Under the pieces are notes generated by a model. It made no database searches, was not told the origin of the DNA, and was given only the letters and a program-made list of their open reading frames with translations. Shown here piece after piece: positions 4,431 to 8,496 of a stretch of 64,000 bases of DNA (the stretch's first letter is position 1; each line of letters opens with the position of its first letter). Source of the stretch: a virus; the IMG/VR virus record IMGVR_UViG_3300047089_000307, positions 32,001 through 96,000 of that record; one strand, 5' to 3'. The position numbers were made by a program, and so were the translations under genes.

Positions 4431-5481
4431 TGGTGGGTCAGGCTGCATGTACTACCGGATCAAGGTCCCCCTGGAGGAGCTGGCCCGGCACGGTCATGAG
4501 GTGACCTTCCGCTCCGGCGGGAATGAGGAGGGTAACCGGCCCATCACCCTGGCGGAGATGGCCGAGCATGACGTGGTGATCGGGCAGCGGTTCAATCACT
4601 ACGCGGGCATGGGCACCTGGCGCCGCGCCCGCGGGCCGTCCAGCCGGCTGGTCTACGAGATTGATGACGACGTCTTCTCCGTGACCCCGGTCAACTGGCA
4701 GGCGTACCACGTCTACAGCCAGCCGGAGGTCCGCGAGGCTGTCATGCACCAGGCCCAGGTATCGGACCTGGTGACCGTGACCACGGAGCACCTGGCCGCG
4801 GTGATGCGCGAGCACACCGGCAACGGCAACGTCCTGGCGCTGCCGAACTGCGTCCCCGGCTGGGTGCTGGACATGGAGCGCAGGCCCCGGCAGCGCCCGG
4901 CGATCGGCTGGGCGGGCGGCGCCAGCCACGGCAGCGACGTCGGGCTGCTCGTCAGCCCCGTGCGCCGGTTCCTGAAGCGGTTCCCCGGCTGGGACTTCCA
5001 GCTTGGCGGCACGGACTTCCGGGAGACCTTCGCCCGGGAGGGGTCGCCGCGCGGGAGGCTGCTGCACGCCCGGTGGGTGCCGGTCTGCGAGGACGCGCGG
5101 GGCTATTACGAGACCGCGGACTTCGACATCGGCCTGGCCCCGCTGGCGGGAACCCCGTTTGACCTGTCGAAGTCCTGCGTCAAGGTACTGGAGTACGCGG
5201 CCCGGGGCATTCCCTCGATCGCCAGTGACTGCGAGGTTTACCGGTCGTTCATCCGCCATGGCGAGAACGGCTTCCTGGTGAAGAGGGACCATGAGTGGCT
5301 GAAGTACGCATCCGAGCTGGCCAGCGACGGGGGCCTGCGGCTGGCGATGGGCCAGGCAGCGCGGGACACGGCGCGGGAGTGGACGATCGAGGCGAATTAC
5401 CACCTATGGGAGCAGGCGTACCGGAGCCTGTTTAAGGTCAAGTCTCTTAGCGTATTATGGCCTTCGTGCGCGAGCCAGTAG
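4408..5481 (+). CDS. glycosyltransferase, GT-B (GT4-like)
   Basis: YEIDDD, IGWAGGASH, DIGLAPL...KSCVKVLEYAARGIPSIAS, ENGFLV. Confidence 0.9.
   Translation: MRIFAGHDGGSGCMYYRIKVPLEELARHGHEVTFRSGGNEEGNRPITLAEMAEHDVVIGQRFNHYAGMGTWRRARGPSSRLVYEIDDDVFSVTPVNWQAYHVYSQPEVREAVMHQAQVSDLVTVTTEHLAAVMREHTGNGNVLALPNCVPGWVLDMERRPRQRPAIGWAGGASHGSDVGLLVSPVRRFLKRFPGWDFQLGGTDFRETFAREGSPRGRLLHARWVPVCEDARGYYETADFDIGLAPLAGTPFDLSKSCVKVLEYAARGIPSIASDCEVYRSFIRHGENGFLVKRDHEWLKYASELASDGGLRLAMGQAARDTAREWTIEANYHLWEQAYRSLFKVKSLSVLWPSCASQ
5441..5455 (-). promoter_or_regulatory. phage promoter/operator motif (ATACGCTAAGAGACT on - strand)
   Basis: 14/15 identical to 53515-53529; contains the TACGCT -10-like hexamer. Confidence 0.45.
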
Positions 5482-7241
5482 CCAGGCAGTACCGTTACCG
5501 GGCCTATCCCGATGAGGAGCAGGCTGACCTCCTGGACTTCTACGCAGCGGGCGCCCGCGCGTTCTGGAATAAGAACGTCGCGTGGCTGCGCGCCATGGAG
5601 GGAAGTGAGGGGCATGACGACCTTGGCGCTGGCCGCCAGCTGAGCGAGGCTTACGCTTACCTCGCCAGCGTGCCCGGCATCGCTGAGGCCCTGAAGAGCA
5701 GGAAGCATCCGGAGCATGAGCGCTGGACGGCCTTCCTGCGAAAGGCAGAAAGGCCGCGCCAGCCCGGCTGGCATGCGTGGACGCGGCATTACGGGGGTGC
5801 CAGGCTCCGCGGGCAGCTGAGCGGGAACTTCTCTGCCGCCGTGCACGCTGCGCGGGAGAGCGGGATGACGTTCTGGCACGGGGGCGAGCAGCACCCGGTC
5901 TCGGCGGTCCCGTCGAAGGTCCTGCACGGGGCGTGCGGGAGCAAGGGCCAGCTCAAGGCCGCCGTGGACGCTGTCATGAAGAAGCGCGCCGCTGGCAAGC
6001 GCGCAGAGCTGCCCCGCTGGCGTGCCCGGCATGAGAGCCAGAACCTGCGCTGGCAAGTCCAGGATGGTCCCCGGAACGCGACCCGGGAGTCCCTGGTGAC
6101 GGTAACGGGCACGCGGCACGCCACCGTGCCGCTGGTAACGACGCGCGGGCACGAGGGTAATAAGAGCCTGCGCATCCGCTATCATCGCGAGCTCCCCGCG
6201 GACGCCTCAGTGTCCTTCATGCAGGTGACCTGGAATCCGGGGACCGGCTGCTACTTCGTGACGCTCACGCTGACGACCGCGCAGTACGAGGTTCCGGCCA
6301 CGACGGGCATGGCCGGCATCGACCGGGGCATCGTAAAGGCTGCTGTCACTTCGGACGGGGAGTACTACGATTCTCCGGGACTGAACCAGGGGCGCCGTCG
6401 CCGCGAGCTCCTGCTCCAGCAGTCCCTTGACTGGAAGCGCCGCGTGCTGCCGTGCAAGGGCCGGTGCGCGCACGAGCCAGGGCAGTGCTGGCGCACGTCA
6501 CTACGGTATGCACGGGTCGTGACGGCCCGGCAGCGGCTCCTGGACGCCCAGGAGGACCTCATCGATGACGGGGCGCACAAATTCTCCCGGGCTATCGCCC
6601 GCCGGTACGCGGTCGTCGTGCTTGAGGACCTGGCGAACCTGATGACGGCGTCCACGGCGAAGGGCACGGTAGCCGCCCCCGGCGTGAGCGTGCGCGCCGC
6701 CGCCGGACGCAACCGGGAGGTACGCGCGGCTAACTGGGGGCGCATTGAGCAGTACCTGGGGTATAAGGCAGGGCAGCTCCTCGGCGTCCCGGCGCCGTAT
6801 ACGTCGCGGACATGCCCGCGATGCGGGTATGTTAGCGTCATGAACCGGCCCTCCCAGGCGGAGTTCCGGTGCGGGTCCTGCGGACTCAGCGGCAACGCTG
6901 ACGTGATCGCGGCCGGCAATATCGTTAATGCAGGGAAAACCGCCCGCGCGCTGCGGGATAACGGGCAGGGATCGTCCTCCGGGATTAACCGGGGGCCTGG
7001 CGCTAGCCGGGAGCCTGCCAACACTCACAACTTTACAGTGGCCCCGGGCGAGCGCTGCGGTAGTGCGCCCGATCCCGGTCAGCGCTCGCAGGCAGGTGAG
7101 CAGCCAGGAATCGTTACCGAGCTCGACGGAACGGTGATCCCGGAGACGTGGGGCATCCCCGGTGCTCGCATCCGCGGGGGAAACCGCAGGTCACGACGGG
7201 CGAAAAAGCCGAGCGGTGGCAACACTGCCGGAGCCGGGTGA
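5457..7241 (+). CDS. CRISPR-associated TnpB/Cas12-like RNA-guided RuvC endonuclease (compact type V effector candidate)
   Basis: IS605 OrfB-type N-terminus YRYRAYPDEEQ..GARAFWN; RuvC-I GIDRG (D289), RuvC-II VVLEDL (E390), Zn ribbon CPRC..CGSC (C453/456/472/475), RuvC-III NADVIAAGNI (D482); abuts the CRISPR array. Confidence 0.92.
   Translation: MAFVREPVARQYRYRAYPDEEQADLLDFYAAGARAFWNKNVAWLRAMEGSEGHDDLGAGRQLSEAYAYLASVPGIAEALKSRKHPEHERWTAFLRKAERPRQPGWHAWTRHYGGARLRGQLSGNFSAAVHAARESGMTFWHGGEQHPVSAVPSKVLHGACGSKGQLKAAVDAVMKKRAAGKRAELPRWRARHESQNLRWQVQDGPRNATRESLVTVTGTRHATVPLVTTRGHEGNKSLRIRYHRELPADASVSFMQVTWNPGTGCYFVTLTLTTAQYEVPATTGMAGIDRGIVKAAVTSDGEYYDSPGLNQGRRRRELLLQQSLDWKRRVLPCKGRCAHEPGQCWRTSLRYARVVTARQRLLDAQEDLIDDGAHKFSRAIARRYAVVVLEDLANLMTASTAKGTVAAPGVSVRAAAGRNREVRAANWGRIEQYLGYKAGQLLGVPAPYTSRTCPRCGYVSVMNRPSQAEFRCGSCGLSGNADVIAAGNIVNAGKTARALRDNGQGSSSGINRGPGASREPANTHNFTVAPGERCGSAPDPGQRSQAGEQPGIVTELDGTVIPETWGIPGARIRGGNRRSRRAKKPSGGNTAGAG
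6930..7215 (+). ncRNA. putative omega-RNA/tracrRNA-like structured region overlapping the 3' end of the nuclease ORF
   Basis: Perfect 10-bp stem 7048-7057/7080-7089, further hairpins at ~7110-7135 and 7174-7187, CACTCAC (7022-7028) complementary to repeat GTGAGTG. Confidence 0.5.
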
Positions 7242-8039
7242 GTGAGGCGACACGCTCTTGCCGTGCAGCTGGTCAATCTGGCCCTGGTGGCAACACTGCC
7301 GGAGCCGGGTGAGTGAGGCGACTGGGCACCGGGCGAGGCGTTCTGCCCGGCGTTGCCGGTGGCAACACTGCCGGAGCCGGGTGAGTGAGGCGACTGGGCA
7401 CCGGGCGAGGCGTTCTGCCCGGCGTTGCCGGTGGCAACACTGCCGGAGCCGGGTGAGTGAGGCGACAGGTGGTGGGACGGGCTGCCCGGGTTGGTCAGCA
7501 TGGTGGCAACACTGCCGGAGCCGGGTGAGTGAGGCGACCAGCCCGCGCCGTCGCTCCGGAGAACCTTGTATTCGGTGGCAACACTGCCGGAGCCGGGTGA
7601 GTGAGGCGACAAGCAGCAGACGCCGCCGGTGAGCGTGTCCTCGGGCCGTGGCAACACTGCCGGAGCCGGGTGAGTGAGGCGACTCGGTGCGCCTGCGGCT
7701 ACGGGTGGCCGGCTTGATCGGTGGCAACACTGCCGGAGCCGGGTGAGTGAGGCGACGGCTTCCAGGCGTCGGCGAGCCGGACCACCTCGCGCGTGGCAAC
7801 ACTGCCGGAGCCGGGTGAGTGAGGCGACCGCGACTGCTGCAATGCGCTAGACAAGGCAGGTGGCAACACTGCCGGAGCCGGGTGAGTGAGGCGACAGTGC
7901 AGCGCTGATGTCAGCCTGCGCCCGCGACTTGGTGGCAACACTGCCGGAGCCGGGTGAGTGAGGCGACATCAGGACCGGCCTTACCGGTCGACGCCTCCCG
8001 GCGGTGGCAACACTGCCGGAGCCGGGTGAGTGAGGCGAC
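7216..8039 (+). CRISPR. CRISPR array: 12 identical 36-bp repeats GTGGCAACACTGCCGGAGCCGGGTGAGTGAGGCGAC, 11 spacers of 31-37 bp (spacers 2 and 3 identical)
   Basis: Repeats start at 7216, 7287, 7359, 7431, 7503, 7575, 7648, 7721, 7793, 7860, 7932, 8004. Confidence 0.98.
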
Positions 8040-8040
8040 T

Positions 8041-8065
8041 GCTGCGGTATCCTGGCCACCGCAGC
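8041..8065 (+). terminator. hairpin immediately after the last CRISPR repeat
   Basis: GCTGCGGT-9 nt-ACCGCAGC perfect 8-bp stem; no U-tract. Confidence 0.4.
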
Positions 8066-8080
8066 CGGGAGGAGCACGTG

Positions 8081-8290
8081 ATGACGCAGGTACCGCAGAC
8101 GGAGTCCCGCGGCGGCGACAAGCCGGACTGGGGCAAGGCCGTCGCCGGCGAGCCGCTGCCGCAGCTGGGCGAGGAGTACCCGGAGCCGGACAGCGGGCAG
8201 GCCCCGTTGCAGGACGGCCAGCCCTTGCGGCCAGAGGACAACCGGGGCGTTACGGAGCCTCCCGGCGGCAATGACCCGGAGTCGCAGTAG
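8081..8290 (+). CDS. small acidic hypothetical protein
   Basis: GGAGGAG SD upstream. Confidence 0.6.
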   Translation: MTQVPQTESRGGDKPDWGKAVAGEPLPQLGEEYPEPDSGQAPLQDGQPLRPEDNRGVTEPPGGNDPESQ

Positions 8291-8496
8291 TGGCGCACGG
8301 CGGCTTTCACGGCCAGGTGGGCCAGGGCGGCACCGGTCCGGACGAGGCGGTACCCGAGTGCCCGGTCTGCCACGCCTGCGGCGGCGGGGGCCACGGCGGC
8401 TTCTGCCCGAACCGGGACCAGCCTGACCCGGCGCGCTGGACGACCTTGCCGCCGGCCGGGTTCACCGCGGCGCCACCGCATGAAGGGAAGCCATGA
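8290..8496 (+). CDS. small Cys/His-rich hypothetical protein
   Basis: CPVCHACGGGGHGGFC; coupled to upstream stop. Confidence 0.5.
   Translation: MAHGGFHGQVGQGGTGPDEAVPECPVCHACGGGGHGGFCPNRDQPDPARWTTLPPAGFTAAPPHEGKP

Follow-up and report, generated by a model that had tools for sequence, protein, structure and literature searches.

A phage-borne TnpB-like gene beside a CRISPR array probably encodes a guide-RNA scaffold within its C-terminal coding tail

The DNA considered here (the window) is a 64,000-nucleotide (nt) stretch of the virus record IMGVR_UViG_3300047089_000307. It contains an open reading frame (ORF) for a TnpB-like, RNA-guided nuclease (the effector) and, 3′ of it, a 12-repeat CRISPR array. 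The segment where the two meet, the 3′ end of the ORF, is a candidate source of a guide-RNA scaffold and is the subject of this study. The record, from IMG/VR, measures 88.6 kilobases (kb), has a GC content of 69% and a completeness estimate of 42%; the neighborhood of the effector gene consists of phage genes. The effector matches the NF040570 guided_TnpB model with 109.5 bits (cut-off, 100) and PF07282 with E = 5.5e-14. It combines a RuvC D-E-D triad (D289, E390 and D482, invariant across the family described below) with a zinc-ribbon TNB domain, and structure comparison places its fold nearest to those of ISDra2 TnpB and Cas12f (best match 8h1j). The effector derives from TnpB. GenBank phages include no close DNA relative of the locus and, at the protein level, gave TnpB-level matches only. 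The positions of all features are listed in Table 1.

Table 1. Effector gene, tail elements and array (positions in the window)
Feature	Position	Strand	Remarks
Effector ORF, 594 amino acids (aa), TnpB-derived, Cas12-like	5457-7241	+	stop codon (7239-7241) inside CRISPR repeat 1
RuvC-III motif NADVIAAGNI	6894-6923	+	last catalytic block, after which the tail starts; D482 invariant
C-terminal coding tail, aa 495-594	6939-7241	+	low complexity, mostly predicted disordered, codon periodicity lost
Block I, predicted anti-repeat	7014-7030	+	UGCC (7016-7019) and CACUCAC (7022-7028), facing repeat positions 31-34 (GGCG) and 23-29 (GUGAGUG)
Hairpin H2	7048-7089	+	base GCGAGCGCUG/CAGCGCUCGC conserved; upper stem varies in sequence, pairing kept elsewhere
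Nucleotide motif A, GCGCTCGCA-G-GCAGGTGAG	7082-7100	+	rare codons GCA, GGT
Peptide VIPETWG, aa 560-566	7134-7154	+	conserved at the protein level
Motif B, GCTCGCA ... CCGCAGGTCACG	7164-7195	+	encloses hairpin H5; rare codons GCT, AGG, TCA
A-rich stretch and GCCGAGCG	7202-7215	+	directly 5′ of repeat 1, conserved across loci
CRISPR repeat 1	7216-7251	+	contiguous with the candidate scaffold; holds the ORF stop codon
CRISPR array with 12 repeats (36 nt each, identical) and 11 spacers (31-37 nt)	7216-8039	+	

A sequence-only reading of the window had pointed out that the ORF runs on for about 100 low-complexity codons past the RuvC-III motif, as we confirmed, and had proposed that this tail retains an ancestral omega-RNA scaffold, possibly split into parts resembling tracrRNA (the trans-activating CRISPR RNA) and crRNA (CRISPR RNA). 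The proposal was followed up by comparing eleven homologous loci. Word-based and exhaustive profile searches yielded about a dozen clusters at 50% identity, beyond which scores fall to those of generic TnpBs; GTDB representative genomes provided no family member among the best 80 of 442 relatives. Homologous DNA was recovered for the loci designated L002, L005-L009 and L011-L017. The loci of the family are mostly on phage or phage-like contigs: L016 is part of a 210-kb and L017 of a 130-kb viral contig, L014 adjoins a primase-helicase gene, and the contig of another member, P0004, bears a phage gp49-like gene. In nearly all of them an array of 36-nt repeats with a period of ~72 nt abuts the ORF, whose stop codon falls within repeat 1. 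The window repeat reads GTGGCAAC...GGCGAC, and the repeats of the family all end in GCGAC. In the tail of P0004, the peptide RSTVLSVKKMR is repeated 24 aa apart; this ORF therefore reads through two repeats (72-nt period). Two near-identical metagenome contigs (L008 and L009) carry a frameshifted effector, reflecting either a pseudogene or an assembly error; five to seven repeats persist in them, the distal ones being degenerate.

One sign of an RNA function comes from a short segment of the tail, block I. The sequence-only reading had noticed that GCCAACACTCAC (7017-7028) is complementary to the 3′ part of the repeat, GTGAGTG-A-GGC. This pairing is borne out and, allowing for a U·G pair, extends to 7 + 4 base-pairs (bp). 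A plain, unguided MAFFT alignment of nine loci (alignment A5) starts just 5′ of block I and covers repeat 1 to its end; from it, RNAalifold predicts that block I forms a helix with the 3′ part of repeat 1. Over the ten pairs of this helix, 84% of the cells are paired, as compared to 19-52% when the partner columns are slid. Covariation amounts to 0.297 versus 0.134 ± 0.031 in shuffled controls, none of which (0/500) reached the observed value. Double changes affect five of the ten pairs and, among all 6-bp helices found by scanning the alignment all-against-all, the block I-repeat helix ranks first by covariation. Block I and the 3′ part of the repeat differ among four lineages yet remain complementary. 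In the window, UGCC-AA-CACUCAC faces GUGAGUG-A-GGCG; in L013, CGCG-AA-CGAUCAUC faces GAUGAUCG-A-CGCG; in L011, CAGUCAUCAG faces CUGAUGGCCG; and in L005, L008 and their relatives, CGCG/CGUC-AA-CUCGC faces GCGAG-G-UGCG. The helix also forms in the unconstrained minimum free energy (MFE) structure of the contiguous window RNA (7004-7271), that is, in cis. When the tail RNA and a repeat-spacer unit are cofolded as two molecules, it is again part of the MFE structure, in trans. The local duplex has an energy of -16.5 kcal/mol. A sliding scan for anti-repeats recovered only the array's own reverse strand.

Structure is conserved 3′ of block I as well. The perfect stem recognized in the first reading, GCGAGCGCTG (7048-7057) with CAGCGCTCGC (7080-7089), is present (10 nt, 100% complementary) and belongs to hairpin H2, which is found in eight of 11 loci; L007 lacks the hairpin, and L002 and L006 have a degenerate form of it. 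H2 is 87% paired, with two compensatory pairs; the upper stem in L011, CCGGUGAU/AUCACCGG, has changed in sequence with pairing kept. The hairpin GCGG-GGGAAA-CCGC (7174-7187), here named H5, likewise proved to be maintained across loci while its arms change, reading AGGC/GCCU in L017 and CGGGU/AUCCG in L002. Two other stems drawn by the sequence-only reading did not fare as well. CCTGCC/GGCAGG (7014-7019/7091-7096) exists in the window but is not conserved elsewhere and competes with the anti-repeat helix, and the stem near 7110-7135 appears as a weak local stem in the MFE fold but is not conserved in the other loci. Around the hairpins lie segments of fixed nucleotide sequence. GCTCGCA-N-GCAGGT (7084-7098, motif A) is common to most loci. 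In motif B (GCTCGCA...CGCAGGTCA, 7164-7193), the nine aligned loci show no variation in GCTCGCA or in the AGG core of CGCAGGTCA. Motifs A and B are fixed or nearly so, although the proteins are only 30-45% identical. Next to repeat 1, CGAGC of the A-rich segment is able to pair with GCUCG of motif B; the helix 185-188/232-236 is 89% paired, without variation. The A-rich/GCCGAGCG segment may be a processing or leader element.

The tail shows unusual features as a coding sequence. GC contents at the first, second and third codon positions are.68,.68 and.72 in the tail and.68,.53 and.84 in the core; codon periodicity is gone. Third positions are conserved as much as first and second positions and, where residues are identical, the fraction that also share the codon is about 0.61 in the tail versus 0.46 in the core. 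The fixed motifs contain the codons GCT, AGG, TCA, GCA and GGT, which represent 5-11% of their codon families in this phage (9% for GCA, 5.5% for GGT). All family loci have a tail of 53-111 aa, whereas the median for 146 TnpB relatives is 30 aa. Most of the tail is predicted to be disordered: AlphaFold2 (AF2) gives aa 506-549 a confidence score (pLDDT) of about 30, and aa 566-594 one of 40-55. The score reaches 84 at aa 551-560; VIPETWG is the only piece of the tail that is confidently modelled. All family loci encode the corresponding peptide, (L/V)(I/V)PxxWG, which does not occur in any of 148 TnpB tails; P562, W565 and G566 are nearly invariant, while the third codon positions are free between loci (CTC/CTT/CTG, CCG/CCC, GGC/GGG/GGA). 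Such conservation at the protein level requires in-frame translation at least up to VIPETWG. The tail would then be dual-coding, for protein and for RNA, and more than an open frame that happens to cross an RNA gene. The sequence-only reading had named conservation of the tail at the amino-acid rather than the structural level as an outcome that would tell against it. VIPETWG is conserved in this way, but H2, H5 and the anti-repeat helix are conserved as structures.

These findings bear on the possibility that the tail functions as protein only, a disordered basic extension with a docking peptide, that the crRNAs suffice by themselves through 5′/3′ complementarity inside the repeat, as they do in tracr-independent type V systems, and that block I is like the 5′ half of a repeat merely by descent. 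Besides VIPETWG, a basic RRSRR..KK stretch is shared. In addition, block I (GCCTGCCAACACT) is 85% like the 5′ end of the repeat (GCGTGGCAACACT), and the window repeat folds on itself at -12.8 kcal/mol. The self-helix of the repeat, however, is 62% paired and shows a covariation of 0.108 versus 0.070 in shuffled controls, 13 of 500 of which reach the observed value; one slid control equals its score, and the consensus fold of nine repeats has an energy of only -0.2 kcal/mol. Nor would a protein-only tail account for the rare codons fixed in motifs A and B, or for L017, where the H5 residues are altered non-conservatively (RRS to AWS) and RNA pairing is retained. Finally, L006 lacks the 5′ half of the repeat but possesses block I and the 3′ part. 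On balance, we regard a protein-only tail as unlikely.

Several observations weigh against an RNA scaffold. To begin with, the MFE of the 323-nt segment 6930-7252 is no better than that of shuffled sequences (z = -0.86; z = 0.01 for the minus strand), and the energy of the repeat-tail duplex is no better than with shuffled repeats, as judged from the window alone, at 69% GC. The block I-repeat helix is part of the single-sequence MFE structure for four of nine loci and missing from it for the other five. Block I is not clear in the L014/L017 clade, and helices H3 and H4 either have weak support or do not vary. VIPETWG is selected as protein, so part of the tail conservation does not derive from RNA. 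The covariation counts use only nine sequences, some of them closely related. Lastly, G·U and A·C cells are equally frequent in the helices (8 versus 7; 6 versus 5) and therefore the pairing pattern alone does not identify an RNA of the + strand; calling the strand from wobble pairs was dropped for this reason. What led us to favor the scaffold is the covariation among the homologous loci, since the stems and the anti-repeat of the window do not by themselves exceed chance.

Taken together, the predicted helix and its covariation, the constraint at the nucleotide level and the structural conservation of H2 and H5 make it probable that the region from ~7004 to 7215 encodes both a mostly disordered protein tail and a structured scaffold of about 210 nt, of the tracrRNA/omega-RNA type. 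The ensuing model is based on comparative sequence analysis; it includes steps that we infer, namely transcription, the sites of processing, action in trans and cleavage of DNA. Gene and array would be co-transcribed from the + strand. The scaffold would start with the anti-repeat, UGCC-AA-CACUCAC (7016-7028), followed by H2, motif A, motif B with H5 and the A-rich/GCCGAGCG segment, and continue seamlessly into repeat 1 and spacer 1. The anti-repeat would bind 11-17 nt at the 3′, spacer-proximal end of the repeat (GUGAGUG-A-GGCG-AC), closing the scaffold beside the guide, at the position of the pseudoknot/stem-1 contact in the guide RNAs of TnpB, Cas12f and Cas12n. For spacer 1, the product would be a natural single-guide RNA (sgRNA) acting in cis. 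The remaining spacers would act through crRNAs that are released from the array by cutting and pair with this anti-repeat in trans. The resulting ribonucleoprotein would cut the DNA of competing phages adjacent to a 5′ protospacer adjacent motif (PAM).

Some information on targets comes from the spacers. Spacer 4 (7467-7502) is identical, in 36 of 36 bases, to a segment of the Terminase_3 (large terminase) gene of another viral contig, IMGVR_UViG_3300035086_000030 (L176:11179-11214), and the match looks like phage-against-phage targeting. This is the sole protospacer found; its 5′ flank, CCTTC, provides a single hint of a TTC PAM. A search with three further spacers gave no exact match. Spacers 2 and 3 (7323-7358 and 7395-7430) are identical to each other, indicating that a repeat-spacer unit was duplicated close to the end of the array that faces the ORF. 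In contigs from four soil or rhizosphere DNA runs the tail is without differences and the array is fragmented or collapsed. One soil-metagenome contig (run X9, covering 6700-8200) joins position 7212 straight to 8001, reducing the array to a single repeat; the junction may reflect collapse by the assembler or a real array-less variant.

A different way of looking at the array is that the scaffold serves exclusively in cis, as an omega-RNA for the first spacer, with the remaining units being unused or dependent on host factors or another system. The contiguity of scaffold, repeat 1 and spacer 1 fits such a scheme. So do L002, with just two degenerate repeats, and L006, where an intact 577-aa effector is followed only by the 3′ 19 nt of the repeat (GGCGGGCGTGAGGTGCGAC) and a single guide-like flank (L006:2155-2190), with no more repeats within 1.2 kb downstream. 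The L006 layout resembles that of an omega-RNA; the repeat remnant retains the segment that pairs with block I, so that scaffold is kept and the 5′ half of the repeat is lost. On the other hand, the window, L016 and L017 have retained 12 to 14 or more identical repeats per array, which implies selection on every unit. Moreover, the spacer that perfectly matches the terminase gene of another phage is not the first one, and cofolding supports pairing in trans. A scaffold working only in cis thus seems improbable, somewhat more so than a tail working only as protein.

Still less credit can be given to the idea that the sequence 5′ of repeat 1 is conserved as a CRISPR leader, acting as DNA through adaptation or promoter signals. 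The ORF-proximal end of the array is indeed the leader end: degenerate repeats are distal in L007, L008 and L017, the duplicated spacer of the window is near the proximal end, and an A-rich segment precedes repeat 1. A leader, however, fails to explain the compensatory changes between block I and the repeat or the hairpins kept despite changed sequence. Furthermore, the entire record contains no cas1 or cas2 gene, and neither a promoter-like site nor relevant promoters or terminators were found within 5200-8400.

The general layout favored here, a scaffold RNA overlapping the 3′ end of a nuclease gene, is already known from Cas12n and TnpB. In Cas12n, the tracrRNA resides inside an unstructured, dispensable C-terminal coding tail (PMC12216341; bioRxiv 10.64898/2026.03.27.714800, citing Chen et al. 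2023); in RdCas12n, nt -4 to -2 pair with nt -168 to -170 (PMC12216341; bioRxiv 10.64898/2026.03.27.714800). The family shares with Cas12n a small TnpB-like effector and a tail, unstructured by prediction, after the last RuvC residue. In silico, it also shares a tracrRNA-type anti-repeat encoded in the 3′ end of the ORF and a putative helper-RNA scaffold that covers the tail and ends beside the array. As in RdCas12n, guide-proximal bases of the repeat are predicted to pair with the 5′ part of the scaffold, at the described pseudoknot position. RdCas12n is also the best match of the family profile among solved structures (9j09, 147 bits), followed by TnpB (109 bits) and LaTranC (72 bits).

Nonetheless, the family is not canonical Cas12n. 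With the V-U4 profile PDLC00933, the window effector (P0001) scores 123 bits, and two other family proteins, P0015 and P0024, score 151 and 128 bits; six presumed canonical Cas12n loci score 639-682 bits, and plain TnpBs 340-430 bits. A top match to the PADLOC 'Cas12u4' model was rejected as proof of Cas12n identity, the model scoring plain TnpBs above the effector; an AKGTxxxPGxNVxxKxGLNR insert was rejected as a Cas12n synapomorphy, being common in plain TnpBs. These six reference loci, L179-L184, come from actinomycete genomes and are taken as V-U4. Five of them have arrays, of 28-29-nt repeats with a 61-nt period, as opposed to the 36-nt repeats and 72-nt period of the family; these repeats look like type I-E repeats. 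L183 has no array within 1.5 kb. The canonical anti-repeat occupies roughly +197 to +212 in a tail region some 260 nt long, close to the 3′ end of the tail, and co-varies with GGGA(G/A)CG. It sits some 50-60 nt 5′ of the array, whereas that of the family lies at the 5′ end of the scaffold, ~190-200 nt 5′ of the array. Other features that set the family apart from Cas12n are the ORF stop codon inside repeat 1 and the phage or phage-like contigs. The PAM may differ as well, being A-rich (AAN) in Cas12n, while the one protospacer found here has a 5′-TTC flank. The arrays of the reference loci begin ~10 nt after a conserved (C)GCAGGTCA motif; the presence of the GCAGGTCA motif 5′ of arrays in both groups hints at common descent of the scaffolds.

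TnpB turns its own mRNA into omega-RNA by processing (PMC12216341; 10.64898/2026.03.27.714800). The effector resembles TnpB in being a RuvC and zinc-ribbon nuclease with a candidate guide scaffold that overlaps the ORF 3′ end and runs into the guide. Unlike TnpB, the window locus has no tnpA or transposon ends, is located in a phage genome and not in an IS200/IS605/IS607 element, and has a multi-spacer array; the tail is longer in the family, of which L006 alone has a single guide. The scaffold motifs are missing from 145 TnpB loci, those of the nearest TnpBs included, and Rfam families gave no match across 6700-8200. The proposal of a retained, split omega-RNA is supported as far as a scaffold with an anti-repeat is concerned, but no link between the scaffold and any particular TnpB omega-RNA was found in these comparisons. 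Kinship could also be sought in TranC, the transposon-CRISPR intermediates, of which CauTranC9 is reported to be phage-borne (Jin et al. 2025, Cell, as cited in PMC13565253 and 10.64898/2026.03.27.714800). Here, too, a TnpB-derived effector is joined to an array, and the guide RNA may be viewed as a split omega-RNA with tracrRNA and crRNA as its parts. As far as the TranC clades are described in the preprint 10.64898/2026.03.27.714800, they lack an unstructured tail of the Cas12n kind, whereas the family has one. Type V-U2 (C2c8) is not matched (NF038192, 35 bits versus a cut-off of 350; PADLOC Cas12u2, 65 bits), and the conserved repeat hairpin beside the spacer, typical of tracr-independent type V systems (Cas12a/i/j-like), was not found in the family.

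A tentative interpretation, which we consider possible though doubtful, is that this phage-borne lineage and canonical Cas12n turned into CRISPR effectors independently, the omega-RNA of the phage-borne lineage having been split at a different place. If so, the cut would lie upstream of the last, repeat-internal segment, the sole contact in trans would be that between the 5′ strand of the scaffold and the guide-proximal end of the repeat, and the first unit would remain an unsplit, natural sgRNA. The single guide of L006, the two degenerate repeats of L002 and the full arrays of the window, L016 and L017 would form a graded series. In one clade, that of L017, which has no clear block I, the anti-repeat would seem to have shifted to an RNA of its own, capped by a terminator and located 3′ of the array. 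A 10-nt exact complement of the repeat (TCATTCTCTG in GGAATCATTCTCTG) is found in L017 ~85 nt 3′ of the last repeat, on the same strand (L017:4748-4830), and is directly followed by a strong GC hairpin and a T-run terminator. This downstream element may be a separate tracrRNA placed 3′ of the array.

Guide RNAs are the hardest part to annotate in the miniature RNA-guided nucleases that are sought as genome editors. Here the putative helper RNA can be read from comparative data, leading to a testable sgRNA design: the region from ~7004 to 7215 joined to the last ~20 nt of the repeat. By the same token, low-complexity C-terminal extensions of array-adjacent TnpB-like genes should not be annotated as protein only. 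Though its layout has precedents, the organization differs here, and the family adds a phage-borne lineage in which the tail would code for both protein and RNA and in which single-guide and array forms exist side by side. This bears on the published hypothesis that type V CRISPR systems arose from TnpB through splitting of the omega-RNA. If the independent origin considered above were true, the family would document the TnpB-to-CRISPR transition as a living record within phage genomes.

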